NCBI GenBank assembly: GCA_016285085.1
Contig: JAEEQA010000005.1
Location: 3,574 to 67,573 of the forward strand
Reading direction: 5' to 3'
DNA: 64,000 bases
Source: Bacteroidales bacterium
GTDB lineage: Bacteria > Bacteroidota > Bacteroidia > Bacteroidales > WCHB1-69
The translations under genes and the position numbers were made by a program. Shown here in pieces: positions 5,137 through 38,264 of the stretch; position 1 is the first letter of the stretch; every line of letters begins with the position of its first letter. Under the pieces are notes generated by a model. It was not told where the DNA came from, ran no database searches, and saw only the letters and a list, made by a program, of their open reading frames with translations.

Positions 5137-5222
5137 AAATGTTCGCGCAAGCGAACCCCAATGCGAACGTCAGTGAGCTAAAATGCGAACGCAGTGAGCC
5201 CAAATGCGAGCGATAGCGAGCC
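5137..5222 (+). repeat. Mini-hairpin array 1 (4 units)
   Basis: gttcgc-gcaa-gcgaac, gcgaac-gtca-gtgagc, gcgaac-gca-gtgagc and gcgagc-gata-gcgagc, each preceded by (A)AAT. Confidence 0.88.
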
Positions 5223-6263
5223 CTAATACTCCTCGTTGAAGAAAAGCTGGTAGTAGTTCATCCCCGTCTCCGGATCCACACCTTTCTTGATCATCTTGGT
5301 GTCGCCGTGGACGTACACATGGAAGTTTTTGTCCAACTTGATGACACTCTTGAAGTTGCGTGACTGCTTCTTCAACGCGCTGTTGGAAATGCCGAATGAG
5401 TCGGGCACCTGCACGTCGTGTTCCAGCTGGTACTCCTGCTTGTAGTCGTTGAATTTCTCAATCACGTTCGGGTCGCCGATGACCTCCTGCTGGAAGTCGT
5501 CCATCTCGAAGGTCTTGTTTTCCTTGAAGAAGGAAACCGACTTGTTCAAGATTTCGGCCTGGTCGGCACGCGACACTTCGAATTCTTCCGGCATGCACTC
5601 GGTGACGAAACTTTTGCACATGTTCAGAACATGCTGGGTGTTGTAGAATTCGTCCTTGCGCTGGCGGATGTGGAGGAAGTCGTCAGTCCAGTACTGTGCC
5701 TCGGCATTCCGGTTCGTATTGTCCACAATGGCCACCACATAGCCCTTTTCCTGCTCGGTGTTGAAAATCAAGCAGCCTTTATCCAGTTTGTTGAGCCCGA
5801 AGCCAAAGTCGCTCTCCACCACAAAACGGTCGTCCTCTTGATGCACCTTGAGAAAGGTGTCTTTCGTTTCCGCCTTGAAAAGCCCCACTGCATCCACCAT
5901 CTCGTCGTCAATCACACAGTTCTTGAAATAAACCACGTAGAACTCACCGTCCTTGATTTTCGGGTGAGTACACTGGTTGTACAGGTGCTGCGCCAGATAG
6001 AGCGACTGCTCCAGCAGATTGTCCTGATTTTCAAAAATTTCTGTAACCGACTTGTAAACAACATTTTCCTCCACTCCATTCTCGTCATAGAGTTGGAAAT
6101 ATTCATCCGTCTTGAACGGGAAGAGGAAGTAGGTTTTCAGCATGTTCTTCACCTCCTCGCTGACGTGCAAAAGCTCGTGCGACAGGTTCAGCGGTTCTTC
6201 TAACTGTTTGTTGCCGACCGCATGGAGGGCAATGGATTCAACGGTGGTTTCTGCTAAATGCAT
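5223..6263 (-). CDS. Nucleoid-associated protein (NA37/YejK-like, Bacteroidota type)
   Basis: LHAVGNK, HPKIKDGEFYV, LDKGCLIFN, YWTDDFL and KSVIKLDKNFHVYVHG motifs. Confidence 0.82.
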   Translation of the reverse strand: MHLAETTVESIALHAVGNKQLEEPLNLSHELLHVSEEVKNMLKTYFLFPFKTDEYFQLYDENGVEENVVYKSVTEIFENQDNLLEQSLYLAQHLYNQCTHPKIKDGEFYVVYFKNCVIDDEMVDAVGLFKAETKDTFLKVHQEDDRFVVESDFGFGLNKLDKGCLIFNTEQEKGYVVAIVDNTNRNAEAQYWTDDFLHIRQRKDEFYNTQHVLNMCKSFVTECMPEEFEVSRADQAEILNKSVSFFKENKTFEMDDFQQEVIGDPNVIEKFNDYKQEYQLEHDVQVPDSFGISNSALKKQSRNFKSVIKLDKNFHVYVHGDTKMIKKGVDPETGMNYYQLFFNEEY

Positions 6264-6265
6264 AT

Positions 6266-6335
6266 TAGGGGATAGGGTTTAGGGGTTAGGGTATAGGTTT
6301 TAGGGTATAGGGGTTAGGTTTTAGGGAATAGTTTT
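6266..6335 (+). repeat. G-rich heptamer run (TAGKKNN)x10
   Basis: tagggga tagggtt taggggt tagggta taggttt tagggta taggggt taggttt tagggaa tagtttt. Confidence 0.9.
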
Positions 6336-6345
6336 TATCGGGGTT

Positions 6346-6375
6346 TGTAGAGACGTTTCATGAAACGTCTCTACA
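6346..6375. repeat. GTAG-type REP-like palindrome
   Basis: Perfect 30-bp palindrome tgtagagacgtttca|tgaaacgtctctaca. Confidence 0.9.
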
Positions 6376-6398
6376 GGGTTTTGTTTTTATTCAATGTT

Positions 6399-7847
<1,449 letters not shown>

Positions 7848-7906
7848 TCTTAAAAAATGATTTCCCTCTAAAAAAATGCCGATAGAGGGTTGCTGTTTTG
7901 AGGCGG

Positions 7907-7935
7907 CAAAAGTAGCAAAAAAAGACGTAAGTTTG
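7907..7935. promoter_or_regulatory. Back-to-back TAnnTTTG promoter boxes for sufB and the HAD gene
   Basis: TACTTTTG on minus at 7907-7914; TAAGTTTG on plus at 7928-7935. Confidence 0.65.
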
Positions 7936-7978
7936 CCACCCGAAATCTCGTTTTCGGAACATCAAAAACCGACCCGCT

Positions 7979-8617
7979 ATGTTCTACATTTTCGATCTCG
8001 ACGGAACGCTTCTCAACTCATTGGAAGACTTGTGCAACAGCTGCAACCACACGCTCGCGGCGCACGGTTTCCCCACCCATCCGTTGGACGCCTACCGCTA
8101 TTTTGTGGGCGACGGGATGGCGATGCTCATTGAGCGGGTACTGCCCGAGCACGCCCGCACGGAGGAAGTGAAAGCGGTGATTTACAGAGAATTCCTTGAC
8201 CATTACCAGATTCACAAGATGGACCGGACCGCCCCGTACGCAGGCATTGTGGAGGTATTGGAAACGCTCCAGCGGCGCGGCGACCAGCTGGCCGTAGCCT
8301 CCAACAAGGCGCAGGAGGCGATGGGGGAACTGATGCGGCACTATTTCCCGACTGTCACCTTTGCGGCGGCGCTGGGCAAGCGTCCCGGCGTGCCCGTGAA
8401 ACCCGCCCCCGACATCGTGCGGGACATTATGGAAATCGCCGCCGCCACCCCGGAGCAGACGTGGTACATCGGCGACACCGCCACCGACATGCGCACGGCG
8501 GCCAACGCGGGCTTGCGGAAGGTGGGGGTTCTCTGGGGTTTCCGGGACCGCGCCGAACTGGAGGCCGCCGGCGCCGACGTCATCATCAGCGAGCCTCGGG
8601 AGATACTGGGGCTGTAA
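7979..8617 (+). CDS. HAD-superfamily hydrolase (phosphoglycolate phosphatase-like)
   Basis: IFDLDGTL, VASNK, KPAP and YIGDTATD motifs. Confidence 0.92.
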   Translation: MFYIFDLDGTLLNSLEDLCNSCNHTLAAHGFPTHPLDAYRYFVGDGMAMLIERVLPEHARTEEVKAVIYREFLDHYQIHKMDRTAPYAGIVEVLETLQRRGDQLAVASNKAQEAMGELMRHYFPTVTFAAALGKRPGVPVKPAPDIVRDIMEIAAATPEQTWYIGDTATDMRTAANAGLRKVGVLWGFRDRAELEAAGADVIISEPREILGL

Positions 8618-8726
8618 CAACTCCCTTTTTGCCATCCCAAAATAATGTGGTACTTTTGCCGCCCGGTTCGGGTTCCCGAAAAAAAGATACATCTATTTGT
8701 AAAACAACATTTTCTAAAATAAAACT

Positions 8727-9023
8727 ATGGCAGATTTCAGCATTTGGGAAGTACTTTTTCTGCTCTGCTTCGCGGTCAGCTGGCCCGTTTCCATCGCAAA
8801 GTCGCTGCGCACCAAGGTGGTGATTGGGAAAAGTCCGTTTTTCATGTCCTTGGTCATACTGGGCTACATCTTCGGCATCATCCATAAGTCGCTGTACAGC
8901 CACGACATCGTGATATGGCTTTATGTGTTCAATGCCACGTTGGTGGCCACCGACCTTGTTCTCTATTGCACCTACATCGGGCGTAACCGCCGCGACCTGA
9001 TGAACCAAAAGCAGCAGAAGTAA
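8727..9023 (+). CDS. Small 3-TM membrane protein, PQ-loop/SemiSWEET-like
   Basis: 98 aa, three hydrophobic helices, SWP-x-SI-x-KS...GKS pattern; TACTTTTG box at 8651-8658. Confidence 0.6.
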   Translation: MADFSIWEVLFLLCFAVSWPVSIAKSLRTKVVIGKSPFFMSLVILGYIFGIIHKSLYSHDIVIWLYVFNATLVATDLVLYCTYIGRNRRDLMNQKQQK

Positions 9024-9058
9024 AAAAAGCGGGTCGCCTTTCGGAGACCCGCTTTTTT
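9022..9058. terminator. Bidirectional intrinsic terminator
   Basis: aaaaaagcgggtc...gacccgctttttt between convergent genes. Confidence 0.88.
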
Positions 9059-9076
9059 ATTATGTGAAACAAAAGC

Positions 9077-9538
9077 TTATTTCGATTCCTTCGTGCCGGT
9101 GAAGGTGGCAATCACAATATCGGCTTCCACTCCAAGGATGGTGGCCTTGTAGTAGATCTTCATTGTAACGGAAGAACCGTCGAACGTGGCCTTGGCCAAA
9201 ATCTTGTCGATGGTCTGATCGGTGTACTCGTCAATGTTGATGAGGCTGGTGGCAGCCTTGATCATCTCCGTGGTGAAGGAGTTCTCAGAGGTTTCGAAAA
9301 CGCCGGAGGAAGTTTTTTGCATATCAATGCAGTATTCCCAAAGGAGGTTTTCCTTGTTGGCGGGATTCTGGGTGAAGTGCAGCTTGCCCTGTTTAGTGGA
9401 GGTGCTGCTGTCGGACTGTTTCACGATGTTGAAGGTGCCGGCATAGGTGCCCACGTAGTTGGCGGATTCATAGGTGTCATCCTTGCAACCGCAGAATGCG
9501 AGTGCAACCACAAATAACATTAAAAATACTTTTTTCAT
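9077..9538 (-). CDS. Hypothetical lipoprotein
   Basis: MKKVFLMLFVVALAFCGC lipobox followed by acidic KDD; beta-rich body. Confidence 0.8.
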   Translation of the reverse strand: MKKVFLMLFVVALAFCGCKDDTYESANYVGTYAGTFNIVKQSDSSTSTKQGKLHFTQNPANKENLLWEYCIDMQKTSSGVFETSENSFTTEMIKAATSLINIDEYTDQTIDKILAKATFDGSSVTMKIYYKATILGVEADIVIATFTGTKESK

Positions 9539-9568
9539 TTTGATAAAATTTAAGTTGTTAATATTCAA

Positions 9569-11506
9569 TTATTTTTGAAGTTCTTGGTCAATAGTTTGCT
9601 TGATGAGACTGACAAAATCGGCCACAGGCATCGTGCCTTTGTCGCCCGCGCCGTGCTGACGCACGGAAACGGTGCCGTCGTTCTCCTCTTTTTCGCCCAC
9701 GATGACCATGAAGGGCACCTTGCTGACCTCGGCGTCGCGGATCTTGCGACCCGCCTTCTCGTTGCGTTCATCGACGATGGCGCGGATGTCCTGATCATCA
9801 AGCATTTCACGCACCTTCTGGGCATAACCGAGGAACTTTTCGCTGATGGGCAGGATAATGACCTGGTCGGGGGTGAGCCAGAGCGGGAAGTTGCCGCCGG
9901 TGTGCTCGAGCAACACGGCTACGAAACGCTCCATGGAGCCGAACGGGGCGCGGTGGATCATCACCGGGCGCTGTTTGCTCTGGTCGGGAGCGGTGTATTC
10001 CAATTGGAAGCGCTCCGGCAGGTTGTAGTCAACCTGGACGGTACCCAACTGCCACTTGCGGCCGAGGGCGTCCTTCACCATAAAGTCGAGCTTCGGGCCG
10101 TAGAAAGCGGCTTCGCCGTATTCCACCACCGTGTTCAGCCCCTTTTCGGCAGCCGCCTCGATGATGGCGCTTTCGGCTTTGTGCCAGTTCTCGTCCGAAC
10201 CGATGTATTTCTCCTTGTTGTTGGGGTCGCGGAGGGAAACCTGTGCCACGTAATCCTTGAAATCCAACGTTTTGAAGATGTAAAGGATGATGTCGATCAC
10301 CTTGCAGAACTCTTCCTTGATCTGGTCGGAGGTGCAGAAGAGGTGGGCGTCGTCCTGGGTGAAGCTGCGCACGCGGGTGAGGCCGTGGAGTTCACCGCTC
10401 TGCTCGTAGCGATAGACGGTGCCGAATTCGGCCAGACGGAGCGGGAGGTCGCGGTACGAACGCGGCTTCGAGGCGTAGATTTCGCAGTGGTGGGGACAGT
10501 TCATCGGTTTGAGGAAGTAGGCCTCGCCCTCCTGCGGAGTGGTGATCGGGCGGAAGGAGTCCGCACCGTACTTGGCATAGTGACCGGAGGTTTTGTACAG
10601 CTCCACATTTCCGATATGGGGCGTGATCACCTGCTGATAACCATATTTTTTCTGCACTTTCGTCAGGAAGTTTTCCAGACGTTTGCGCAGGTCGGTGCCT
10701 TTGGGGAGCCACAACGGCAAGCCCTGTCCCACCTTCTGGGAGAAGGTGAAGAGTTCCATCTCCTTGCCGAGTTTGCGGTGGTCGCGTTTTTTCGCCTCCT
10801 CCAGCATCACAAGGTATTCATCCAGCTCTTTTTTCTTGGGGAAGGTGATACCGTAGATACGGGTGAGCTGTTTGCGCTTCTCGTCGCCGCGCCAGTAGGC
10901 ACCGGCGGTGTTGATGAGCTTGATGGCTTTGATGGGGGCCGTGTTGAAGAGGTGCGGTCCACGGCAGAGGTCGGTGAAAGCACCGCTCTCGTAGAAGGTG
11001 ATGGTGCCGTCTTCCAAGTCGTTGATCAACTCGACTTTGTAAACCTCGCCTTTCTTGGTGAAATAGTCCAAAGCCTCTTTTTTGGAGACTTCCTTACGGA
11101 CGAACTGGACCTTTTGGGCGGCGATTTCCTGCATCTTTGCTTCGATGGCGGGGAAATTGTCGGAGGAGATGGTCTCGTCCATGAAATCGATGTCGTAGTA
11201 GAAACCGTTTTCGATGCTCGGACCGATTCCGAACTTGGCATTCGGATAAAGTTCGGAGATTGCCGCCGCCATCAAGTGGGCGGAGGAGTGCCAGTAAACG
11301 GCCTTCCCTTCGGGGTCGTTCCACGTCAGCAGGGTGACGGAAGCATCGTCGTTGATTTCATAGTTCAAGGCAACCACTTTGTCGTTCACTTTGGCTGCCA
11401 ACACGTTACGGGCAAGTCCCTCGCTGATTGACAGCGCAATCTGATAGGGGGTCGTCCCTTTTTCGTATTCTTTTACAGAACCGTCAGGTAAAGTAATTTT
11501 AATCAT
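9569..11506 (-). CDS. thrS: Threonine--tRNA ligase
   Basis: TGS domain (ITLPDGS); [34 protein letters not shown] and MIHRAPFGS motifs. Confidence 0.99.
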
Positions 11507-11541
11507 CTTATAGAGTTTTTTATAATTTCAAAAACAGGCGG

Positions 11542-11604
<63 letters not shown>

Positions 11605-11640
11605 CACCCCTATTTGGAGAATTATTAAAACACTGGTTAT

Positions 11641-13641
<2,001 letters not shown>

Positions 13642-13658
13642 TCACAATCTATGGTATG

Positions 13659-13692
13659 AAAAATCCGCCAGCTGGAAAGTTGGCGGATTTTT
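13659..13692. terminator. Bidirectional intrinsic terminator
   Basis: aaaaatccgccagct-ggaa-agttggcggattttt between convergent genes. Confidence 0.88.
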
Positions 13693-13696
13693 GTTG

Positions 13697-22164: not shown

Positions 22165-24180
22165 ATGAGTTTTCTGAAAAAAACATTCCTGTTTATGACT
22201 GCCCTTCTGCTTTTCGCCGCCTGTTCACAGAAGCGCGGCGAACGTCCCGAGGATTTTGCCAACGACACCTTCGAGTTCGTGGTGGACCGCTTTGCCGACA
22301 TCGAAATCATGCGCTACCGCGTGGACGGCTGGGAAGACCTCTCCCTTCAGCAGAAAGAGCTGATCTACTATCTTTCCGAAGCCGCGCGCGCCGGACGGGA
22401 CATCATCTTTGACCAGAATTGCAAATACAACTTGCAGATTCGCAGTGCTTTGGATACCATTGTGGCACAATACGACGGGGACAAAAACTGCGACAACTGG
22501 CAGAAATTCATCGTGTATGCCAAACGTTTCTGGTTCTCCAACGGAATGCACCACCACTACTCCAACGAGAAGTTTTTCCCGAAGTGCCCGAAAGAGTATT
22601 TCGGCAAGCTGATGGACAGCACGATGCACCTTGACAAAGCCGCCCGCACCCAACTTCTGGACATCATCTACAATCCGAAGGTCGCGCCCACCCGCCTCTC
22701 GCAGGACACCCGGAAGGACCTCGTCACCGCCTCCGCCGTCAACTTCTACGACGGCGTCACCCAGAAGGAGGTCGAAAGGTACTATGCCGACCTGAAAGCC
22801 GCCGACACCGGCGCGGATCCGGAACGCCCCGTCGCCTACGGCCTCAACACCAAGGTGGTGAAACAGGACGGAAAAGTGACGGAAGTGCCCGTTAACGTAC
22901 TTTACGAAAAGCAGATACAACGCATCATCCACTGGCTGAAAAAAGCCGCGGAGGTGGCTGAAAACGACAAGCAGAAAGCCCACATCCTGAAACTGGTCGA
23001 GTTCTACCAAACCGGCAGTTTGAAAACGTGGGACGACTACAACATCCTATGGGCGGAAGACACGCAGTCGGAGGTGGACTATGTGAACGGCTTCATCGAA
23101 GTCTATACCGACCCCCTCGGACAGAAGGCGACGTGGGAGGGACTGGCCAACTTCAAGGACCAGGTCAGCTCCGAAAGGTCCGCCATCATCAGCCAGAACG
23201 CCCAGTGGTTTGAGGATAATTCCCCCATTGACGATATGTTCAAGAAGAAATCGGTGAAGGGTGTGGAGGCGAAGGCCATCGTGGTGGCGCAGCTCGGCGG
23301 CGACTGCTACCCCGCCACCCCCATCGGCATCAACCTGCCCAATTCCAACTGGATTCGGAAAGAACACGGCTCCAAGTCGGTGACAATCGAGAACCTGATG
23401 TACGCCTACCACAAGGCGGGCATGAAGAACGGCGTGATGCAGGAGTTCTACTACTCGGAAGAGGAGATCAAGCGGGCCGAAAAGTACGGCTACCAGACTG
23501 ATAAGCTGCAAGTCGATCTCCACGAGTGCCTTGGACACGGCTCCGGCCAGATGCTGTACGGCATCGACGAGGGCGAGCTGAAAAACTACCACTCCGTCAT
23601 CGAGGAGGCCAGAGCCGACCTCTTCTCACTCTACTATATCGGCGACCCGAAGATGGTGGAACTGGGACTGCTGCCCGACACGGCCGCGTACAAAGCCTGC
23701 TACTACAAGTACATCCTCAACGGCCGGATGCTGCAAACCAACCGCATAGAGCTGGGCGGCAGCTTCACGGAGGCGCACATGCAGAACCGCGCCCTCATCA
23801 CCAACTGGTGCCTCGACAACGACTACGACGGTGAAATCTTTGAGGTGGAGACGCGGGACGGCAAGACCTTTATCCGCATCAAGGACTATGAGAAACTGCG
23901 CAAATTGTTCGGCAAACTGCTGGCAGAAGTGCAGAAAATCAAGTCCACCGGCAACTACGAGGAGGCGAAGGTACTGGTGGAACAGTACGGCGTGAAAATC
24001 GACAAGAAACTCCACAAGGAGGTCAAAAGCCGTTACGAGAAACTTGACGTGGCACCCTATGGCGGCTTCCTCAACCCCGAGTTCATCATTGAAAAAGACG
24101 GAGAAAACATTAAAGACATAAAACTTTCGTACCCAACGGATTATATCAAACAAATGTTACAATACGACCAAATGAATTAA
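22165..24180 (+). CDS. Dipeptidyl-peptidase III (M49), lipoprotein
   Basis: FAAC lipobox; GFIEVY and IGINLPN motifs; zinc motifs HECLGH and EEARAD. Confidence 0.93.
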   Translation: MSFLKKTFLFMTALLLFAACSQKRGERPEDFANDTFEFVVDRFADIEIMRYRVDGWEDLSLQQKELIYYLSEAARAGRDIIFDQNCKYNLQIRSALDTIVAQYDGDKNCDNWQKFIVYAKRFWFSNGMHHHYSNEKFFPKCPKEYFGKLMDSTMHLDKAARTQLLDIIYNPKVAPTRLSQDTRKDLVTASAVNFYDGVTQKEVERYYADLKAADTGADPERPVAYGLNTKVVKQDGKVTEVPVNVLYEKQIQRIIHWLKKAAEVAENDKQKAHILKLVEFYQTGSLKTWDDYNILWAEDTQSEVDYVNGFIEVYTDPLGQKATWEGLANFKDQVSSERSAIISQNAQWFEDNSPIDDMFKKKSVKGVEAKAIVVAQLGGDCYPATPIGINLPNSNWIRKEHGSKSVTIENLMYAYHKAGMKNGVMQEFYYSEEEIKRAEKYGYQTDKLQVDLHECLGHGSGQMLYGIDEGELKNYHSVIEEARADLFSLYYIGDPKMVELGLLPDTAAYKACYYKYILNGRMLQTNRIELGGSFTEAHMQNRALITNWCLDNDYDGEIFEVETRDGKTFIRIKDYEKLRKLFGKLLAEVQKIKSTGNYEEAKVLVEQYGVKIDKKLHKEVKSRYEKLDVAPYGGFLNPEFIIEKDGENIKDIKLSYPTDYIKQMLQYDQMN

Positions 24181-24200: not shown

Positions 24201-24297
24201 AAAATGCGAGCGTAGCGAGCAAAATAAAAAAATGCAGGCGCAAGCCTGCCAAATGCGAACGCAGTGAGCAAAATGGTGAGCGCAAGCGAACCCAAAT
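24201..24297 (+). repeat. Mini-hairpin array 2 (4 units), preceded by YTAAAAR heptamers
   Basis: gcgagc-gta-gcgagc, gcaggc-gcaa-gcctgc, gcgaac-gca-gtgagc and ggtgagc-gcaa-gcgaacc. Confidence 0.88.
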
Positions 24298-24345: not shown

Positions 24346-24819
24346 ATGATTCAAAGAGTTCAATCCCTGTTATTGTTGGTAGCCGCGGCGGTGGCGATTG
24401 CCGTTCTTTTTATTCCCATTGGAAACATCATTGATGCGACCGGATTTTCACTTTACCAATACGATGCCTTTTCATTGAAAAAAGAGGGAGTCGGAGTAAT
24501 GAGCACGCTATACATTGCCCTTTTGTGGGGCGTTTCCGCCATCCTTTCGTTGGTAACCATCTTCATGTTCAAAAACCGTGCGCTACAGGTTCGGCTGAAC
24601 GGGATCAACATGCTGGTGATGCTGGCAGCGCTGGTCACGATGCTGTACATCTATCCGAACTTTGTTTTTGAAAAAAGACAGTTTGTTACCAGCTCCGCAG
24701 TTCTTAACTTCAACCGTCTCATCCTCATCTCTTTGGTGCCGGCGGTATCGCTTTATTTGGCCAATATGTTCATCAAGAAGGACGAAAAGAAGGTGCGTGC
24801 CGCCGACCGTCTCCGCTAA
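24346..24819 (+). CDS. DUF4293-family membrane protein
   Basis: MIQRVQS start, IFMFKNRALQ, IKKDEKKVRAADRLR end. Confidence 0.88.
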   Translation: MIQRVQSLLLLVAAAVAIAVLFIPIGNIIDATGFSLYQYDAFSLKKEGVGVMSTLYIALLWGVSAILSLVTIFMFKNRALQVRLNGINMLVMLAALVTMLYIYPNFVFEKRQFVTSSAVLNFNRLILISLVPAVSLYLANMFIKKDEKKVRAADRLR

Positions 24820-27348: not shown

Positions 27349-27378
27349 TCGGTTCTTTTTATAGAAAATCATAACATT

Positions 27379-28122: not shown

Positions 28123-28125
28123 GCC

Positions 28126-29426: not shown

Positions 29427-29976
29427 AGTCCGCTTCGACAAGGACTTCTCCACCGACTCCCTTCTCAACAAGACGTTAGGGGGCGGTGCTTCTTTCATCA
29501 TCGACGGATGGCACCCAAACCTCGACTTCCAGATCAATGTCGATTACGCAGGGCACCGCGGGGAGATTGATTACTGGGGTATCGCACAGAGAATCAACAA
29601 GGTAAAAGCAGGTGTTTCGGCACTGTACACCCACCCTTTAGGCAAGTACTTCCACATTCGTGTGGGTGGTGACGTGTCCTACAACCTTATCAAAAAGGTA
29701 GTTTCCGACCATAACGACACGCTGAACATCTCCAGAAGCGGCATCATCAGCACCACCTACCGGGCACACATGCTCGGCATCGGCGCCATCGTGCAGGTGC
29801 AGGCGCAGTTGGGAAAACTTTTCCGTGTCGGAGTCGGAATTACGCCCACCTATCTCATTCCGCTTACGCAAACGGTGAGTGTCCCCGACAAGCAGCCCTG
29901 CTTCAACAAAAAAGGCATTTTCGACTTTCAATTGCATATAGGATTGGAAATTAAACTAAACAATAACGATAACTAA
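29359..29976 (+). CDS. Hypothetical secreted, probably outer-membrane beta-barrel protein
   Basis: Signal peptide ending AAAQ; alternating beta-strand pattern; overlaps the cvpA tail by 68 nt. Confidence 0.65.
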   Translation: MKKTTLLILTILMCLTAAAQRIEVRFDKDFSTDSLLNKTLGGGASFIIDGWHPNLDFQINVDYAGHRGEIDYWGIAQRINKVKAGVSALYTHPLGKYFHIRVGGDVSYNLIKKVVSDHNDTLNISRSGIISTTYRAHMLGIGAIVQVQAQLGKLFRVGVGITPTYLIPLTQTVSVPDKQPCFNKKGIFDFQLHIGLEIKLNNNDN

Positions 29977-29978
29977 CT

Positions 29979-31367: not shown

Positions 31368-31429
31368 TGTAGAATCTTTTCTTGTGAATAATAGACTTAT
31401 TTTCACAAGGACTTTTTCATTATTCTATA

Positions 31430-31475
31430 CTACTACCCCGCCCTTCGGGCACCCCTTCTACATAGAAGGGGAATT
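31430..31475 (-). repeat. CCCCTTCT/AGAAGGGG double-hairpin repeat, copy 3
   Basis: Reverse complement reads aattccccttctatgtagaaggggtgcccgaagggcggggtagtag. Confidence 0.88.
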
Positions 31476-31506
31476 ACCGCGCCACATTTCTGTTTTACCG
31501 GTCCCT

Positions 31507-31645
31507 GTCCCGGAGGGACGATATCTTATTAACCCCAGATAAGTCCGCGAGAAGCGGACGCAATCTGGGGTGGGCGATGGCCTGTGCGCCTGTCCGCGGC
31601 ACGTGCGATAGATACGGAAGAACACCGCAGGCGATGCCGCGGAAA
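31507..31645 (+). other. Structured non-coding element, REP/MITE-like
   Basis: gtccc-gga-gggac; ccccagat..gtccgc-gagaa-gcggac..atctgggg; ccgcggca...tgccgcgg. Confidence 0.5.
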
Positions 31646-31755
31646 AGAGAAAGGAACTACATCATTACTCTATCAAAAATAACTTTGATAAAAGCACTTC
31701 CATCAAAGCAACTATATTTCATTGAATCATAAAATCTTATCCGCTATTTCACCAA

Positions 31756-32400
31756 CTACTTTTGTCTATTACACCGGAATTTTCTCCCGCGAATTATTCG
31801 GAAATACCACCAGCCCACGAAAAAAGCCCCGACCACACTGAGGAACACCGACAGCCATCCCAAGGGAGTTGTCACTTTTCGGTCGCGTTCCTTGCAAAAA
31901 TCCTGTACTGACATCAACTTGCTCTTGTCCATACCGGCGCCCCCCCATTTACACTCGCCCGTATGCAGGTCGAGGGAGAAACCCTCCACCCATGGTTTTG
32001 CCAGATCATCGAAAGCATATCCATGTAGGATGTGTCCCTCCATATACAGACGGTCCACCTCTTGTACCACAACACCATTACGGCCATTCAACACATCGCA
32101 CTTCCCCATCGAGGCATAAGTTATCACCGTATAGCGATGCTTCAGCGGTGCTTCATAGTCACCCAAAGGGTCAATTCCAATCATGATCATAAACAGGCTG
32201 TTCAATACCACAAAAAGGGTGACAAAAGAGCCAATGGCAACTGCTGGAACCATCACGGCGGCATAACGTTTCCAGCGGGTTTCCGGCTTGCCATAAGACG
32301 ACAGAAGCCGGGCAAGGCCGAACAGGAGGCCGGCGACACCGGAAAGAACTACAATTACCAGCAGGAAGAGCCCCAACCACGCTATCATAGAAAGTCCCAT
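31756..32400 (-). CDS. Hypothetical membrane protein
   Basis: Three hydrophobic segments; TACCTTTG box upstream on the minus strand. Confidence 0.65.
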   Translation of the reverse strand: MGLSMIAWLGLFLLVIVVLSGVAGLLFGLARLLSSYGKPETRWKRYAAVMVPAVAIGSFVTLFVVLNSLFMIMIGIDPLGDYEAPLKHRYTVITYASMGKCDVLNGRNGVVVQEVDRLYMEGHILHGYAFDDLAKPWVEGFSLDLHTGECKWGGAGMDKSKLMSVQDFCKERDRKVTTPLGWLSVFLSVVGAFFVGWWYFRIIRGRKFRCNRQK

Positions 32401-32525
32401 GTTGTTTCGAATTTTATGTGGGCAAAGGTACAGCTTTAATCTCATTTATTACATAATGTTTCCCGTAGAATGGAATGATTTCATTATTTTTCTATTTTTG
32501 CGCCTGAAAAATAACTACTGTGACG

Positions 32526-33548
32526 ATGCAAACCAAACTTTTCATAAAAATCATCTTGGGGATGATGTTGCCGCTTGCCATCAATTCTGTTACTGCCCAA
32601 TCCGGTATGGTCGGTACCTACTGGCATGACGGAAAATATTTTTATCCCGTTGAAACAGAGGATGACACGGCAATATGGGTCAACATGTTAAGCCTGCACG
32701 AAGGTGGAGGAGCAGATCCGTGGGCGAAGACCCAAAATCCGAATGTATTTAAATGCTGTTACGAAGGCGGCGATGAAAAAGAATCATGTGACAGCGTTTC
32801 AAAGATAAACATTAATGGACTGGATTTGATGCTTTTGTACGGGCCTGACAAGAAACTCAACAATATTCTGAAGCGTTATGATGGACAATCAAAGAATAAG
32901 TATTATGCCTTTTCGCATGGCTTTGACACTATCCAGGAAAAAGACAACCGTACACGTATCAAAGGGCGATATGCCATCCCCAAAACGGATATGGTTTGGA
33001 TAATCACCGATGACAGTATATTGGTTTCGGGTACTTCAATCTCCTCTCTGATCAATAAAAACACAAACTATTCCATCTTTTGGGAAATGGATTACACCAC
33101 GCCAGTTTTACAACTTGGCAACAAACGATATATTTACTACGAATTTACAATCAATGGATTAGATATCTTTGAAGGTGTGCTTAACATAGAAGCCGATGGA
33201 TTTGAGTGGGTGGTTAAGGGTCGTTTTCGTTATCATTTGTACAAGCAAGACGTGGATAATATTGTGCCGGGTCACTGGCCGGAGGCTTCCACTATGATTC
33301 TCACACGAGGATATTTGGATCCCTACCCCTCAGCAGTTCTTCGATATATGCGAAATGAGATTTACGCACGAAAAGGATATAAATATGAAAATGAGAGTCT
33401 TGCATCGTTCTTCTGCCAAAATGGGAATTGGTATCATCCTTCCGATAGTCAGGAAAAAGTCCCGCTATCCCTTGTTGAGGAGTTGAACATCCAATTGATC
33501 CAATCCATTGAAAGGGAGAGGAAAAACAAAAAGACTTCGCAAAATTGA
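32526..33548 (+). CDS. YARHG-domain secreted protein
   Basis: Signal peptide ending TAQ; LRYMRNEIYARKGYKY...WY...LSLVEELNI. Confidence 0.85.
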   Translation: MQTKLFIKIILGMMLPLAINSVTAQSGMVGTYWHDGKYFYPVETEDDTAIWVNMLSLHEGGGADPWAKTQNPNVFKCCYEGGDEKESCDSVSKININGLDLMLLYGPDKKLNNILKRYDGQSKNKYYAFSHGFDTIQEKDNRTRIKGRYAIPKTDMVWIITDDSILVSGTSISSLINKNTNYSIFWEMDYTTPVLQLGNKRYIYYEFTINGLDIFEGVLNIEADGFEWVVKGRFRYHLYKQDVDNIVPGHWPEASTMILTRGYLDPYPSAVLRYMRNEIYARKGYKYENESLASFFCQNGNWYHPSDSQEKVPLSLVEELNIQLIQSIERERKNKKTSQN

Positions 33549-33584
33549 GAATATTTTGAAAAAAGTTGTATTTTTGCCGCCGTT

Positions 33585-33902
33585 ATGATAGTAACGTTTG
33601 AAAAAGAATATCTACAGGAATTATATGTTAAAGGAAAGGCATCGGATAAGAAGCACCGTTTTCAACCAGATGTGATTTCACGGTACATAAAAGTGGTGAA
33701 CATAATGAAAAATGTGGCCGATGTGTTGGAATTAGTACGATTTAACGGCTTACATTATGAGCATTTACAAGGAGATAAAAGCGGATATTCTTCAGTAAGA
33801 GTGAATGACAAGTATAGAATAGAATTTGTGGAAAGAATTGTCAACGACGAAACAATTGCAACGGTATGCAATATTACAGAATTAACGAACCACTATAAGT
33901 AA
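33585..33902 (+). CDS. higB: HigB (RelE-fold) toxin
   Basis: MIVTFEKEYLQELY, LHYEHLQGD, SVRVNDKYRIEF and ELTNHY motifs; toxin gene upstream of antitoxin. Confidence 0.88.
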   Translation: MIVTFEKEYLQELYVKGKASDKKHRFQPDVISRYIKVVNIMKNVADVLELVRFNGLHYEHLQGDKSGYSSVRVNDKYRIEFVERIVNDETIATVCNITELTNHYK

Positions 33903-34253
33903 ATGATTATGATGCATATAGAAGGAATTAAGGACAATATGATAGCAAACAATCTTACGCCTTTTTTCCCCACCCATCCCGGTGAGGTAATTAAAGACGA
34001 GATCATAGCGCGTGGCATAACCCAACGACAACTGTCTGAGGTTACAGGCATTGCCTATTCCGTTGTGAATGAAGTTCTAAATGGCAAGAGACCTGTCACT
34101 GTTGAATATGCATTGTTGATAGCCAAGGCCCTAGACATTGAAGCGGCCACGTTCATTCGGATGCAGGCAGAATACGACTTGCAAACGACTAAGAGTGATA
34201 ATTCTTTTATCCGCCGACTCACCGCCGTCCGCAAGATTGCTTCAGTTCTATAG
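33903..34253 (+). CDS. higA: HigA antitoxin (XRE HTH)
   Basis: PTHPGEVIKDEI, NEVLNGKRPVT and RMQAEYD motifs. Confidence 0.9.
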   Translation: MIMMHIEGIKDNMIANNLTPFFPTHPGEVIKDEIIARGITQRQLSEVTGIAYSVVNEVLNGKRPVTVEYALLIAKALDIEAATFIRMQAEYDLQTTKSDNSFIRRLTAVRKIASVL

Positions 34254-34274
34254 TTTTTACTCAAAAAATCCCTT

Positions 34275-34508
34275 ATAAAACCCTCCCTTTTTACAGTCCT
34301 CTTTTTCCTTCTGCTAACCTTCCATGCGGCAGGGCAGCAGACGGTTGATGCGAGAGATTTCGCTGTGGCGGAAGGACTGGGACTTTGTCAAGGCATTCCC
34401 GCATGGGCGATACAAGGGGACACCAATCTTTCGTGGATAAGCGATAAGATGCTGTTAGACAGTAAGGCGCGACGTACGTGTACGGGTGGATGCCATTGTG
34501 AGGAATGA
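34275..34508 (+). pseudogene. Probable remnant of a secreted-protein gene (ATA in place of a start codon)
   Basis: Open frame of 77 codons: IKPSLFTVLFFLLLTFHAAGQQTVDARDF..., resembling a Bacteroidota signal peptide. Confidence 0.4.
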
Positions 34509-34511
34509 AGG

Positions 34512-35579
34512 CTAGGTCTTCACGCACTGCATGATGCTGTGGCCAAGGCCGAGGTTGTCGTGGATGATTTCGATTTTCAAACCTGATGTTTCCACGCAGC
34601 GAGCCATGTCCTCCGAATAGTACATCTTGCTGTTTCCGTTGGCTAACGCCGTGAAATAGAGGCTGATCTGTGCCAGACAATAGGAGGCCGTCTCGAAACG
34701 CTGGCGGTCCCAGAAGGTTTCCATGATGTACAGTTTGCTGCCGGCCTTCATCGATTTGGCGGCGCGGCGCAGGATGCTGCACACCTGCTCTTCCGAGAAG
34801 CAGTCGAGGAACTGGCTCATCCAGATGGCGTCGAAGCCTTCGGGGAAGGCCGTGGCCTCGTCCAGCAAGTTGCAGCCGTGCCCGTGAATGCGGTCGGAGC
34901 CCTCAAGACCGGCGGTGGCGTGGCGCATCATCTCCAGCTGCTGCGGCAGGTCCATGATGGTGACCTCCACTTCCTGATTGTACGATACGCACCGTGTGGC
35001 CCAGCGACCGGTGTTGCCGCCCACGTCCAACAGCGTCTTCGGCCCGTTCTTGAAGACAATCTCCAGCGCCTGGTCGAACGAGTTGTCGGAATAGAAGTGG
35101 TCGAAACCGAACCAGCTTTTCTGCACCTGCGGCGGCAGCTGCGAAAGCCCCTCGTAAATGGTGGGCCAGCTGCCGAACACCTTCAACCCTTCGGGTTTCC
35201 CGTTGAGGATGGCCTCCTCCAGGTTGAAAAGTCCGAGGTAGTTGACGTCGTGGTTGAAGTCCATGTTCACCCGCGCCATCTGGTCGTTAAGCAGGAACCA
35301 GCCGGCTTTGGCCAAGTGGAACTTGCCGTCTTTCAACAAGATAGTGCCGATGGTGAGCGACGATTCCAGCAGCACCTGCGCCCCATAGTGCGACAAATGT
35401 GCCTTTTCCGCCACCTCGTCTATCGTCAGACCCTCCTTGTGGTCGCCCAGCATTTGGAAGATGCCCCACTTCACCATCAGGCGCGACACCTGAAAGACCA
35501 CGGGTCCGAATGCGATTTCCTGTGCCAGACGTTGCGCCTGCAACGCCGTAAAACGCTCTTTTGAATATATCTCGTGCAT
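34512..35579 (-). CDS. SAM-dependent methyltransferase (O-methyltransferase family)
   Basis: LLDVGGNTG, IMDLPQQ, IWMSQFLDCF and YFTALANGNS motifs; alternative TTG start at 35597. Confidence 0.9.
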   Translation of the reverse strand: MHEIYSKERFTALQAQRLAQEIAFGPVVFQVSRLMVKWGIFQMLGDHKEGLTIDEVAEKAHLSHYGAQVLLESSLTIGTILLKDGKFHLAKAGWFLLNDQMARVNMDFNHDVNYLGLFNLEEAILNGKPEGLKVFGSWPTIYEGLSQLPPQVQKSWFGFDHFYSDNSFDQALEIVFKNGPKTLLDVGGNTGRWATRCVSYNQEVEVTIMDLPQQLEMMRHATAGLEGSDRIHGHGCNLLDEATAFPEGFDAIWMSQFLDCFSEEQVCSILRRAAKSMKAGSKLYIMETFWDRQRFETASYCLAQISLYFTALANGNSKMYYSEDMARCVETSGLKIEIIHDNLGLGHSIMQCVKT

Positions 35580-35596
35580 AGTCGTATGTTTTTTCA

Positions 35597-35672
35597 ATTT
35601 GGGTTCACTTCGTGAACATTTTTTGATTCTGGTTCGCTATCGCGAACATTTGGGCTCGCTGGCGCGAGCATT
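35597..35672 (-). repeat. Mini-hairpin array 3 (3 units)
   Basis: Minus strand: gctcgc-gcca-gcgagc, gttcgc-gata-gcgaac and gttcac-gaa-gtgaac; adjacent to CYATAACT x3. Confidence 0.85.
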
Positions 35673-35695
35673 CCATAACTCTATAACTCCATAAC

Positions 35696-36598
35696 TCAAA
35701 CCCCATCCCAAAAGTCAAAATAGTTGAACCATTGTTCGGGGTGCTTCCGCAAGACGGATTCAAGAGACTTCGCGTAGGCAGCAGCAATCTGCTCGCTTTG
35801 CTTGCGGATGGGAAGCGACGGGTCGGGCGAGGGGAGGAGTTGCACGGTGCTGTGGTAGTGCCGTCCGCGCACCTTGGTGTTGACGATGGAAACGACCGGC
35901 ACCTGCATCTGCGCCGCCAGAAGGAAGGTGCCCAGCGGGAACTTCGCCTCTTTCCCGAGGAAGTTGACCGTCAGGGTTTTGTTGCTGCCCCAGATGCGGT
36001 CGCACAGGATGGTGACGATTTCGCCGTGTTCCAAAGCATCCTTGATGATGAACAGGTGGGAAAGGTCCTCCTCCACGGGAACCAATCGTATGTTGTTTTG
36101 TGTGAACGAGTTGCTGCGCCGTTGCTTGATGACTGCTGCTTCTCCGCCGTAGATGACGGCATTGATCCGTTTCTTGCTTTGGCGGATACAGTGCCCCGTC
36201 AACTCGAAGTGGCCGATGTGCGACCCCGCGATGATGAAGCCGCCGGGCTGGTCCAACAGCTGCCGGATGACCTCCTCGTTCTCAATATCGAGTTGAAACT
36301 GTTCTGTGTTGCCCGCCAGCACCGCGAACCGGTCCAGCACCACCTGTCCGAAAATCAGATGGTTCTGGATGGTCTTCCAGAAGGATTTCCATCCTGAATA
36401 ATGGTGTATTTCTTTGAAATAACGGTAGATGCAGCCGAAAGCCTTGTGGTTGACCACACAATAGACGGGCACGACCAACGGCAGGACGGGGTATAGCACC
36501 GTCACTTTCACGGATTTCAGACAGCCTAAAACGAAACGCTGCCCGAAATTGCCGCCGCCGGTTTTCCCGGTCCACTGCACTTCCGTCTGCTGCGCCAT
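35696..36598 (-). CDS. LpxL-like/lysophospholipid acyltransferase
   Basis: WTGKTGG, FGQVVLDRF, SHIGHFE, CDR, AKFPLG and PEQWFNYFDFW motifs. Confidence 0.88.
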   Translation of the reverse strand: MAQQTEVQWTGKTGGGNFGQRFVLGCLKSVKVTVLYPVLPLVVPVYCVVNHKAFGCIYRYFKEIHHYSGWKSFWKTIQNHLIFGQVVLDRFAVLAGNTEQFQLDIENEEVIRQLLDQPGGFIIAGSHIGHFELTGHCIRQSKKRINAVIYGGEAAVIKQRRSNSFTQNNIRLVPVEEDLSHLFIIKDALEHGEIVTILCDRIWGSNKTLTVNFLGKEAKFPLGTFLLAAQMQVPVVSIVNTKVRGRHYHSTVQLLPSPDPSLPIRKQSEQIAAAYAKSLESVLRKHPEQWFNYFDFWDGV

Positions 36599-36840
36599 TA
36601 GGCCATCTTGTTTTCAACGTAATCGTAGAACTGCGCCAGCGTCTTCACACCCTTCATGTCCTCGGGCTTGATCTTGATCTTGAAATGCTTCTCCACAATC
36701 ACGGCAATGTCCACAAAATCAAGGCTGTCGATTTTGAGGTCTTCCTTCAAAAGCGCATCGTCCTTCAGCTTGTCGGCATCAATTTCCAATTCCTCAATCA
36801 AAAAGTCGTTGACAATTTTAATGATTTCTGTTCTTTCCAT
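36598..36840 (-). CDS. Acyl carrier protein
   Basis: Acidic 80-aa protein with DLKIDSLDFVD phosphopantetheine site. Confidence 0.95.
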   Translation of the reverse strand: MERTEIIKIVNDFLIEELEIDADKLKDDALLKEDLKIDSLDFVDIAVIVEKHFKIKIKPEDMKGVKTLAQFYDYVENKMA

Positions 36841-36848
36841 AAATTAGT

Positions 36849-36975
36849 TATAAGGTTTATAAAGTTTATCAGGTTTATCAAGTTAAGAAGTTATGCGTGA
36901 ATAGAGAGTTCGTCTATTTTTAGTTTCTTCGTTTCTTAATTTCTTCGTTTTCAATTTTCAGTTTTCAATTTTCCA
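36849..36975. repeat. Degenerate 9-, 8- and 7-mer runs
   Basis: ataaggttt ataaagttt atcaggttt; tttcttcg tttcttaa tttcttcg; ttttcaa ttttcag ttttcaa ttttcca. Confidence 0.7.
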
Positions 36976-38188
36976 TTTTCCGAATGACCAGCGCGCTGTT
37001 CGTCCCGCCGAAGCCGAAGGAGTTGGACAGGTACGTCTTGATGGTTTTGGTCATGGTTTTGGGTACGATGTTGAGGTTCTGTGAATGTTCATCGGGATTT
37101 TCGAAGTTGATGTTTGGGGCGATGAAGTCGTTGAGCATCATGAGGTTGGAATAGACGATTTCGCTGCCGCCCGCCATCCAGCACTCGTGGCCGGTCATCG
37201 ACTTGGTGGAGGAAATCGGGGTTTTCAGTTCCCCGAAGAGGTGGTTGAGCGCGTCGGCTTCGAACGCATCGCCCTGCAGCGTGGAGGTGGCGTGGGCGTT
37301 GATGTAGTCGATGTCAGTCGGTTGCACGCCCGCGTCCTTCATGGCCCGCTCCATGGCGATGCAGGAGCCGAGGTCGCTGGGCTGCGAAATGTTGGCGCCG
37401 TTGGACGAGAACCCGTAGCCGATCACCTCGGCAATGATGGGAGCGCCGCGTTTCACGGCGTGTTCGTACTCTTCCAGAATCACCGTTGCTGCGCCGCCGC
37501 TCGGCACCAAGCCGTCGCGGTCGCGATCGAACGGGCGGGAGGCCTTGGTGGGGTCGTCCACGCGGGTGGAAAAGGCGCTGATGGCATCGAAGCTGCTCAT
37601 CGACAGGTAGTTGACCTCCTGTGCGCCGCCGCAAATCACCATGTCCTGCAGCCCCTGACGGATGAACATCAGTCCCAGTCCGATGGCGTGCGAGCCACTG
37701 GCGCAGGCGGCGCTGATGGTCATGTTGATGCCTTTCAGTTTGAAGATGGTGGAGAGGTTCATCGTCACGGTGGAGTTCATCGACTGGAAGATGGCGCCGG
37801 AGCCCTGCAGGGTGGTGTCCTTCGTCTCCAGCGTGTGCATGTGGGCCTCAATCACCGACTTCGCCGACGAGTCGTTGCCGTAGAGGACACCGACTTCGTT
37901 CTGCTCGAGGTAGTCGAGGTCGATGCCGGCGTTGCGGAGTGCCTCCGCGGTGGCCATATAGGCGTACTCACCCTCTTCGGCAAGGCAGATGCGGGCGCGG
38001 CGGTCGAGCAGTCCCTTCAGTGCCGGGCGTTCCACGATTCCCGTGAGCGGCGAGCGGTAACCGTACGCAATACGCTCCGGATCAATGCCGATGCCCGACT
38101 TCCCGTCATATAACGATTGCCGCACCTCCTCCAGGTTCTTCCCGAGGCACGACCATATTCCCATTCCTGTGATGACAACTCTTCGCAT
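36965..38188 (-). CDS. Beta-ketoacyl-ACP synthase (FabB/F-like, polyene-cluster type)
   Basis: RRVVITGMG, AACASG, PFDRDRDG, NAHATST, KSMTGH and SNSFGFGG motifs. Confidence 0.95.
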   Translation of the reverse strand: MRRVVITGMGIWSCLGKNLEEVRQSLYDGKSGIGIDPERIAYGYRSPLTGIVERPALKGLLDRRARICLAEEGEYAYMATAEALRNAGIDLDYLEQNEVGVLYGNDSSAKSVIEAHMHTLETKDTTLQGSGAIFQSMNSTVTMNLSTIFKLKGINMTISAACASGSHAIGLGLMFIRQGLQDMVICGGAQEVNYLSMSSFDAISAFSTRVDDPTKASRPFDRDRDGLVPSGGAATVILEEYEHAVKRGAPIIAEVIGYGFSSNGANISQPSDLGSCIAMERAMKDAGVQPTDIDYINAHATSTLQGDAFEADALNHLFGELKTPISSTKSMTGHECWMAGGSEIVYSNLMMLNDFIAPNINFENPDEHSQNLNIVPKTMTKTIKTYLSNSFGFGGTNSALVIRKMEN

Positions 38189-38203
38189 GTTCTGTAATTC
38201 TAC

Positions 38204-38264
38204 ATTTGGGCTCACTGCGTGAGCATTCAATGATTATTTATTTGGGTTCACTTCGTGAACATTT
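38204..38264 (-). repeat. Mini-hairpin array 4 (2 units)
   Basis: Minus strand: aat-gttcac-gaa-gtgaac-ccaaat and aat-gctcac-gca-gtgagc-ccaaat. Confidence 0.85.

Follow-up and report, generated by a model that had tools for sequence, protein, structure and literature searches.

What is maintained in short intergenic repeats whose stems alternate between ordinary base pairs and tandem G.A pairs, the letters of the sequence or the fold that they allow? This question is raised by four arrays in a 64,000-nucleotide stretch of DNA from a Bacteroidales bacterium (GTDB lineage WCHB1-69; assembly GCA_016285085.1, contig JAEEQA010000005.1, positions 3,574 to 67,573), the whole of which is called the window below. 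Thirteen units built as AAT-G-N4-C / loop / G-N4-C lie in the arrays, all of them present where a preliminary description, made from the letters alone, had placed them. In six of the 13 units GA faces GA in the middle of the stem (G.A units), while in the others the stem centre is Watson-Crick (W-C), with TC facing GA in the typical case; the loop is GNA or GNNA, closed by C-G, in 13 of 13, and the 3' arm reads GYGARC in 12, the sole exception being GCCTGC.

Comparison of the units across the genome clearly points to a strand-specific fold being maintained, with covariation around an invariant tandem G.A block and a C-G-closed G..A loop, and the observation is real and stronger than first described. 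We regard the units as REP/BIME-like, non-coding, strand-specific mini-hairpin modules in fast-evolving short-tandem-repeat spacers of one rumen Bacteroidales genus, a reading held with moderate confidence, since we are about as ready to doubt it as to accept it. They are REP/BIME-like in behaviour, yet members of no RAYT-REP, Ssn-SRM or Rfam family.

Size of the family and evidence for the fold

In the source genome (G000; 2.58 Mb in 132 contigs, 52% G+C, 94% complete), to which counts refer unless another genome is named, a descriptor that specified no more than AAT, a GYGARC 3' arm and the first and last letters (G and C) of the 5' arm found 106 places. Enrichment was measured with a pattern of AAT, a 6-bp stem whose outer four pairs are W-C, and a loop of 3-4 nt. 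The G.A class of this pattern occurs 79 times, against once in the reversed genome and 0-4 times with five other three-letter prefixes, and the W-C class 109 times against 36-81 in the controls; AATGYGARCGNAGYGARC has 54 copies and none in the backwards-read control. The genome-wide search which the preliminary description had proposed thus confirms the family, with its G.A class far above the reversed-genome control. A broader detector gave 146 units in 47 arrays, 106 being G.A and 40 W-C; G.A units are the genome-wide majority, not a variant.

Covariation was followed in all 122 GYGARC-N3-4-GYGARC pairs of the genome, taken with no pairing filter. Position 2 of the 5' arm and position 5 of the 3' arm combine as C-G 76 times, T-A 28, T-G 10 and C-A 8 times, and position 5 of the 5' arm and position 2 of the 3' arm as A-T 55 times, G-C 55, A-C 8 and G-T 4 times. 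Arm positions matched as direct repeats are uncorrelated, and arms matched across the linker rather than the loop do not pair. GCGAAC is partnered by GTGAGC 42 times and by GCGAAC only 3 times, a crosswise preference by which a reading as direct repeats or half-sites is excluded. The covariation of flanking pairs, noticed at first in 13 units, therefore holds in a larger and unfiltered set. The restriction of loops to GN(N)A, complete in the window, is partial genome-wide, with 96 GN(N)A, 6 AN(N)A and 20 other loops among the 122; the triplet before the stem is AAT in 82 and ATG in 11.

Most G.A units of this set belong to four stem types, and all four Y/R combinations are present both with G.A centres and with TC/GA centres. 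Moreover, unrelated stems (GCAGGC/GCCTGC, GTCCGC/GCGGAC, GCAAGC/GCTTGC) occupy the same slots and obey the same loop rule. Triloops sit on 76 of the 106 G.A stems and tetraloops on 33 of the 40 W-C stems. When three homologous arrays, two paralogues of G000 and one of its relative G014, were aligned, 6 of about 11 differences (counted by eye) fell in free loop letters, and one unit showed a double compensatory change together with an altered loop length. Tandem sheared G.A pairs favour the context Y-GA-R. The claim that a fold, not a sequence, is maintained stands in its first half, by covariation, and fails in its second, in view of the GYGARC arms, the 5' (C)AAAT and an identical 18-mer in other phyla; the modular nature of the element is supported. 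The case for the fold is comparative, not thermodynamic.

Anatomy of the arrays

Each unit has a conserved 5' (C)AAAT, a 6-bp stem and a C-G-closed GNA or GNNA loop, and its two central stem positions are either W-C (TC facing GA) or a Y-GA-R / Y-GA-R tandem G.A block, which is possible on one strand only. All units of an array are co-oriented, with up to 11 in tandem. The period from unit to unit is 21-22 nt (49 cases) or 27-31 nt (34 cases), and 49-50-nt composite repeats and near-identical adjacent units are found in some arrays. The linkers are CCAAAT (23 cases) or carry one added 6-7-mer such as AGAATCAAGAAT, the hairpin units being interleaved with CAAAT-type 6-7-mers, and the hairpins of relatives stand directly next to arrays of plain heptamers such as CAAATCT / AGATTTG. 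The genome contains 202 period-7 arrays, mostly intergenic, with more than 200 different consensus units; they are STRR-like in being intergenic, oriented tandem 7-mers that are hypervariable among relatives. The mini-hairpins are a hairpin-bearing variety of these 7-base tandem spacer arrays, not free-standing elements.

By gene calls and Pfam, the neighbours of the window arrays (Table 1) are unrelated housekeeping genes. Array 1 lies between convergent genes for a histidine kinase (3482-4984, plus strand) and an NA37 nucleoid protein (5223-6263, minus strand), and its 3' end touches the stop codon of the latter. Arrays 2 to 4 are sense to both flanking genes, as had been described and as gene calls and Pfam confirm: array 2 between peptidase M49 (22165-24180, plus) and DUF4293 (24346-24819, plus) genes; array 3, with GAGTTAT-type 7-8-mers ahead of it, between a lipid A acyltransferase-like gene (35696-36598, minus) and a methyltransferase gene (34512-35579, minus); and array 4 upstream of a ketoacyl synthase gene (36965-38188, minus) and downstream of a Fib_succ_major gene (38305-39690, minus). 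Other perfect palindromes stand beside arrays 4 and 1, at 38276-38297 (GAGACGG...CCGTCTC-like) and 5093-5104 respectively; at least three hairpin families exist side by side in the genome.

Table 1. Positions of the mini-hairpin arrays and their units in the window, and of genes of the PF05635 family
Feature	Position	Strand	Description
Array 1	5138..5221	+	four units, AAT before each
Array 1 unit	5141-5156	+	GTTCGC-GCAA-GCGAAC, W-C
Array 1 unit	5163-5178	+	GCGAAC-GTCA-GTGAGC, G.A
Array 1 unit	5185-5199	+	GCGAAC-GCA-GTGAGC, G.A
Array 1 unit	5206-5221	+	GCGAGC-GATA-GCGAGC, G.A
Array 2	24203..24292	+	four units
Array 2 unit	24206-24220	+	GCGAGC-GTA-GCGAGC, G.A
Array 2 unit	24234-24249	+	GCAGGC-GCAA-GCCTGC, W-C
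Array 2 unit	24255-24269	+	GCGAAC-GCA-GTGAGC, G.A
Array 2 unit	24275-24292	+	GGTGAGC-GCAA-GCGAACC, 7-bp stem, G.A
Array 3	35603..35672	-	three units, all W-C
Array 3 unit	35654-35669	-	GCTCGC-GCCA-GCGAGC, W-C
Array 3 unit	35632-35647	-	GTTCGC-GATA-GCGAAC, W-C
Array 3 unit	35603-35617	-	GTTCAC-GAA-GTGAAC, W-C
Array 4	38210..38263	-	two units, both W-C
Array 4 unit	38246-38260	-	GTTCAC-GAA-GTGAAC, W-C
Array 4 unit	38210-38224	-	GCTCAC-GCA-GTGAGC, W-C
PF05635 genes	G000 contigs C83:70710-71024, C105:7049-7351, C38:10599-10907, C14:16306-16617; loci L166-L194		multi-copy intervening-sequence (IVS) family

Orientation relative to genes

The arrays are strongly oriented with respect to transcription, a bias for which the preliminary description had proposed a test. 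In co-directional spacers 55 units are sense and 3 antisense; counted by arrays the ratio is 17 to 3, and by multi-unit arrays 15 to 1. In most of these spacers the array ends 16-64 nt ahead of the next start codon, which leaves little space for a promoter. Thirteen arrays lie in convergent spacers, 7 of them reaching to within 8 nt of the opposing stop codon, and four in divergent ones. Two units of the window are terminator-like (a hairpin followed by a T-tract) on the antisense strand only, and none is so in the sense direction. Selection could account for the orientation, either by acting against termination within transcription units or by favouring a block to antisense transcription. For the replication strand, inference from third-codon GC skew gave only noise in this fragmented assembly (co-oriented genes 136 of 287; 7 arrays leading, 13 lagging and 12 undetermined).

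Turnover within the genus

Of 19 genomes in the genus, 7 contain the exact commonest unit, with 32 copies in G000, 14 in G014, 4 in G001, 2 each in G013 and G018, and 1 each in G006 and G012. It is missing from 22 other relatives, and a degenerate G.A pattern occurs once across 300 other Bacteroidales genomes; within Bacteroidales, the family is confined to this genus among the genomes searched.

Comparison of sites across relatives, likewise proposed at the outset, found other short repeats at orthologous positions. At the site of array 3, GAAAACT/GAAAACG heptamers are present in G007 and G014 and other short sequence in G017 and G010. Upstream of the ketoacyl synthase gene, where array 4 lies in G000, none of 16 readable relatives (G014 left out) has mini-hairpins, and several carry other short tandem repeats. 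In a DNA contig of another sample, the place of array 2 is taken by 171 unalignable letters between flanks about 99% identical. The arrays thus vary between species and between strains. The Fib_succ_major gene with a type IX secretion system (T9SS) tail beside array 4 is itself not syntenic in relatives: it is missing at the corresponding position in G007, its place there being taken by about 48 bp, and many paralogues of 65-70% identity exist across the genus.

Recurrence in archaea, viruses and other phyla

The same 18-mer is found again, as an exact match, on many contigs belonging to several Methanosarcinales metagenome-assembled genomes (MAGs), where AAT...ATT extends the stem. In three genomes of this archaeal order the pattern YGARC-GNA-GYGAR occurs 63, 40 and 165 times against 1, 0 and 1 in the control. 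In their sibling hairpins the G.A block and the C-G closure are retained, and all three other pairs covary; fully paired units number 35, against 2 in the control, with 32 of them in four further main stem types and three as single types. No recurrent neighbour gene was found for the archaeal hairpins, the largest cluster being 3 open reading frames (ORFs) from 2 loci. At several Methanosarcinales loci (L200, L227, L249, L216, L339) composite multi-hairpin repeats were observed, including a 62-nt tandem unit; they hold a 9-11-bp version of the tandem-G.A hairpin, and some stand beside decayed Y1 transposase genes.

The module is also carried by 22 viral contigs, 3 of which have at least 2 G.A hairpins. 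In a 596-Gb genome collection at least 112 exact matches were found where, by our arithmetic, about 70 are expected by chance, and single matches in scattered phyla were disregarded. For a Bacillota MAG (G328) a loose pattern was dropped, as its 61 matches against 57 in the backwards control are no excess, and only exact-match repeat copies count. Identical two-unit G.A stretches in Burkholderiaceae and Terrimicrobiaceae bins (L212 and L273) may come from a shared phage or be a binning artefact. That the hairpin turns up again in methane-cycling archaea and on viral contigs suggests a principle of general kind rather than a peculiarity of one lineage.

A four-helix-bundle protein gene enclosed by arrays

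The suggestion that the window does not encode a partner protein, if there is one, is counted as supported, and the only gene-level lead, and only candidate partner seen, is an IVS / Avd-like four-helix-bundle protein. Its gene on contig C14 belongs to PF05635 / TIGR02436, annotated as "23S rRNA IVS protein"; the protein matches TIGR02436 at 3.4e-30, and the nearest solved structure is 2GSC, with five chains. The Avd protein of diversity-generating retroelements is pentameric and basic and binds nucleic acid. A retroelement link, combining an Avd-like protein with a reverse transcriptase, was rejected because no RVT_1 match exists in the genome.

The C14 gene is bracketed on both sides by mini-hairpin arrays in inverted orientation, the only inverted array pair of the genome, and a homologue in G013 is enclosed likewise. 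Close homologues (65-99%) occur only in G013, G001 and G014, each adjoining mini-hairpins, and in G014 and G001 the gene is inverted. In an independent case, a Clostridia MAG that the hairpin pattern had brought to light, units lie about 60 nt upstream of an IVS-family gene. In C14:16285-16747 (L139:1286-1744) the ORF is seen to continue into the downstream array, so that its last 25 residues or so are repeat-encoded.

By local alignment the C14 gene ranks third of 1744 genes of the genome for flank complementarity. Exact 7-mer sharing was dropped as a score of inverted flanks, REP palindromes dominating it, and the gene caller had missed 3 of the 5 IVS-protein genes. Among 27 IVS-family genes from 27 other Bacteroidales genomes, inverted short-repeat flanks score above the 95th percentile of G000 genes in 23 and above the 99th in 20, the form of the enclosure being a tandem array of 6-8-nt repeats upstream and its reverse complement downstream. 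The family is multi-copy, with PF05635 matches in 30 of 41 Bacteroidales genomes and up to 11 per genome. In our literature searches no paper on the function of the family or on its enclosure by repeats was found. Two other genes were seen among repeats: C29:292-1716, which is among the top inverted-flank scores though not an IVS-protein gene and stands between long TAAACTT / CCTATAA tandem arrays and, on its opposite flank, GGTTATT arrays, and the small gene C108:3921-4331, DUF559-type endonuclease-like by eye only, with REP-like palindromes and short tandem repeats around it.

Relation to known families

No described family accounts for the units. Against Rfam, the window gave no match at the gathering threshold, the surroundings of array 2 two sub-threshold matches only (E 2.2 and 5.9), and ten loci of other lineages tRNAs only; our literature searches found no description of such a hairpin family. 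The expectation that no described Rfam or RAYT-REP family would match is thereby borne out, and a Ssn match is likewise excluded.

The closest likeness is to REP/BIME elements, which are abundant short hairpins between genes, imperfect in pairing and marked by a conserved oligonucleotide at their 5' foot; they occur singly or in clusters, are recognised on one DNA strand in known cases and are transcribed with neighbouring genes (Quentin et al. 2018, PMC6006769; this and the other papers named here are cited from parts of their text). Like them, the mini-hairpins are dispersed between genes and have a conserved 5' oligonucleotide; unlike them, they lack GT[AG]G, stand head-to-tail rather than in inverted pairs and have a 6-bp stem with tandem G.A. 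A RAYT-type REP was rejected on account of the missing GT[AG]G guide, the direct arrays and the Y1_Tnp genes, since the two Y1_Tnp ORFs of the genome (158 and 160 aa) are flanked by palindromes of the CGTGCC...GGCACG and GCCCC...GGGGC types and not by mini-hairpins. A test on tnpA for elements of the IS200/IS605 (PATE-like) type found no shared hairpins in G000, while 4 of 9 tnpA fragments are near G.A hairpins in one archaeal genome.

With the NTS/SRM repeats (Chenal et al. 2025, PMC11893778) the units share oriented hairpins and a C-G-closed loop. Those hairpins are recognised only as single-stranded DNA (ssDNA), by Ssn GIY-YIG nucleases, and flank the cognate gene. Unlike them, the mini-hairpins have no GTC-W-Y 5' element: no GTC of the H-GTC-W-Y / R-N-C-Y elements stands before the stem on either strand of the units inspected by eye. 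The Ssn/NTS motif was rejected as the genome has no small GIY-YIG gene, the single PF01541 match lying inside a 614-aa open frame.

The C-G-closed GNA/GNNA loop with a sheared G.A is that of the mini-hairpin DNA d(GCGNAGC) / d(GCGNNAGC) of Hirao and co-workers (PMC13037366), whose GC-GN(N)A-GC core is present exactly in units of the GCGAGC type and of the GTGAGC/GCGAAC type. In the portion of that source used here, such DNA is known from synthetic oligonucleotides, a few phage and plasmid origins and phage N4 promoters; it binds SSB poorly, resists nucleases and is much more stable than the RNA form, with a melting temperature (Tm) of 83.5 C for a GTTA-loop DNA. What differs here is that the units form a genome-wide family and that their stem has a further G.A block, a tandem one.

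STRR-type heptamers, among them those of cyanobacteria and the TAACTGA repeats of Beggiatoaceae, Cyanobacteria and some Bacteroidetes (MacGregor 2015, PMC4679880), are similarly intergenic, oriented to the downstream start codon and highly variable from strain to strain. Arrays of this type surround the mini-hairpins and share CAAAT-type linkers with them, whereas STRR-type repeats are plain heptamers; that paper has two occurrences of "hairpin" and leaves IVS and four-helix proteins unmentioned. BrickBuilt of Porphyromonas gingivalis (Klein et al. 2015, PMC4596501), a 23-nt minisatellite or MITE (a miniature transposable element with inverted repeats) which varies between strains by expansion and contraction and is co-transcribed with adjacent genes, resembles the arrays in being intergenic, restricted to a species within Bacteroidales and of 21-23-nt period. 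It differs by a MITE leader, a tail and terminal inverted repeats, and the word "hairpin" does not occur in that paper, which describes neither G.A pairs nor covariation in the passages cited.

Finally, PF05635 proteins are reportedly encoded by ORF-bearing intervening sequences of 23S rRNA. Such sequences are said to place a protein of this family between inverted repeats able to pair across the ORF, as here; unlike them, the present cassettes lie between ordinary genes, and their inverted repeats are arrays of 7-8-mers or mini-hairpins.

Weighing the explanations

In the reading that we prefer, the arrays would be co-transcribed with neighbouring genes. In the sense orientation an A-rich tract follows each hairpin, so that transcription would not terminate there, while on the opposite strand some units may act like terminators with a hairpin and a U-tract; given sense units that do not terminate and antisense ones that resemble terminators, orientation would be fixed by selection at the level of transcription. 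The fold may lend the sense single strand, be it mRNA spacer or displaced non-template DNA, a compact structure resistant to nucleases and SSB. Spread and turnover would take place at the DNA level, through slippage or recombination in spacer arrays and possibly some ssDNA-acting enzyme.

Several results weigh against this reading. An RNA-library contig (35469-35751) does span array 3 and both flanking genes, yet contigs of poly-A RNA libraries may derive from DNA and do not prove transcription, and gaps in contig coverage over arrays carry no evidential weight either. One 4-unit array, on contig C82, is antisense to both neighbours. The Methanosarcinales hairpins, which prefer divergent spacers, are without sense bias (14 against 13), so that orientation is not intrinsic to the hairpin. 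As to stability, nearest-neighbour z-scores from +0.97 to -1.91, for RNA and DNA and for both strands, are not significant, and the triloop G.A unit is not folded by standard nearest-neighbour models, and a tetraloop unit as RNA is given only -4.2 kcal/mol on the sense strand against -1.2 on the antisense; folding programs are blind to such units because these are small and the models have no special stabilities for GCGNAGC / GCGNNAGC. A role in RNA is further disfavoured by the predominance of C-GNA-G triloops, by about 23 GNYA tetraloops against 6 GNRA in the 122 pairs, by G-T wobbles (14) being no commoner than A-C (16), and by the Tm of 39 C of the RNA mini-hairpin r(GCGAAAGC), far below that of DNA (PMC13037366, in the part used). 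No mobilising enzyme was identified, the search not having covered tnpB/iscB, primases and nucleases. The gene-level lead is weakened too: IVS-protein adjacency in the four genus members is one orthologous locus and so one event, the more than 200 heptamer types so outnumber the 5 IVS-protein genes of the genome that one-to-one pairing is ruled out, and the family has no match in the three hairpin-rich archaeal genomes.

It is possible, though we think it rather improbable, that the units are purely an ssDNA-level mobile element of REP, PATE or MITE type, in which hairpin and 5' AAAT are the site of an enzyme (a HUH Y1 transposase or RAYT, a nuclease or a primase) and RNA effects are incidental. 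The unit fits the DNA mini-hairpin rules GCGNAGC / GCGNNAGC exactly, with DNA more stable than RNA (PMC13037366), and a conserved 5' oligonucleotide with an imperfect hairpin is the REP layout (PMC6006769), both on the cited portions; the 47 dispersed loci with their turnover between species and strains, the 40-165 archaeal copies against 0-1 in controls and without transcriptional strand bias, and the viral contigs are in keeping with it as well. The transposases give a divided answer: in the archaeal genome G327 a G.A hairpin lies within about 350 nt of 4 of 9 analysed Y1-transposase fragments, where we estimate about 4% by chance, but G325, with 63 hairpins, has no Y1_Tnp match, the intact transposase gene of G326 has no hairpin nearby, and both Y1_Tnp genes of G000 have other palindromes. 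Nor do the missing GT[AG]G guide, the direct arrays and the absence of a small GIY-YIG (Ssn) gene and of a reverse transcriptase match speak for a known mobiliser; the 15:1 sense bias would need an additional explanation, and the replication-strand inference is too noisy to help. Still less probable, in our judgement unlikely, is that the IVS / Avd-like protein binds the hairpins or repeat arrays, as RNA or ssDNA, solo arrays being its dispersed regulon or footprints and the enclosure of its own gene reflecting self-regulation or an IVS-like excisable cassette. The inverted arrays around the C14 gene and its G013 homologue, the family assignment with 2GSC as nearest structure, the Clostridia case, the inverted flanks of 23 of 27 family members elsewhere in Bacteroidales, and homologues in 3 of the 4 other genomes having at least 2 exact type-A units (G018 being the one without) all argue for such a role. 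Binding is hypothetical, with no paper on family function found in the searches, and besides the single orthologous locus, the heptamer excess and the archaeal genomes, it has to face G018, G006 and G012, which have 1-2 units and no close homologue, the Bacillota MAG, in which the family has no match, and 2 of the 5 G000 genes, which lack clear inverted flanks.

We find it hard to credit that the arrays are a function-less, slippage-driven minisatellite whose ssDNA folding promotes its own amplification, with covariation merely copied from founder units. Tight periods of 21-22 and 27-31 nt, 49-50-nt composites, near-identical adjacent units in some arrays, rapid turnover, the coverage of most G.A units by four stem types and the precedent of BrickBuilt, expanding and contracting between strains (PMC4596501, as cited above), are what it would predict, whereas all four Y/R combinations in both the G.A and W-C series, further stems that keep the loop rule and the same constraints in unrelated archaeal elements are not, and slippage alone does not explain 47 loci and the 15:1 orientation. 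Duplex DNA operators, with GYGARC as half-site of a dimeric regulator, are already disfavoured and would be most surprising: GYGARC does seem to be repeated directly, 3-4 bp apart, yet the arm letters covary crosswise like base pairs (GCGAAC with GTGAGC rather than with itself), stems of unrelated sequence fill the same slots, and up to 11 tandem units stand beside unrelated housekeeping genes.

Significance

As far as our searches reach, the toggle between G.A and W-C centres with full covariation, the embedding in heptamer arrays linked to IVS-protein genes, and the recurrence across domains are new. The first would be a natural, genome-scale case in which selection keeps a non-W-C block, the tandem G.A, interchangeable with W-C pairs in a tiny hairpin, one that palindrome finders and standard folding programs both overlook. 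The family also supplies a strand marker clean enough to ask if shape signals of ssDNA or RNA are used by bacteria between genes, and it links two things so far unexplained, the heptamer spacer arrays and the very common, function-less "23S rRNA IVS / four-helix-bundle" genes. We put forward, as a doubtful proposal only, that the tandem-G.A / GN(N)A mini-hairpin might be a cross-domain module, repeatedly recruited and read by a widespread activity, the reader in Bacteroidales and Clostridia being the IVS / Avd-like protein. If this were true, the enclosure of IVS genes by inverted arrays would reveal the long-sought factor behind STRR-type heptamer spacers.

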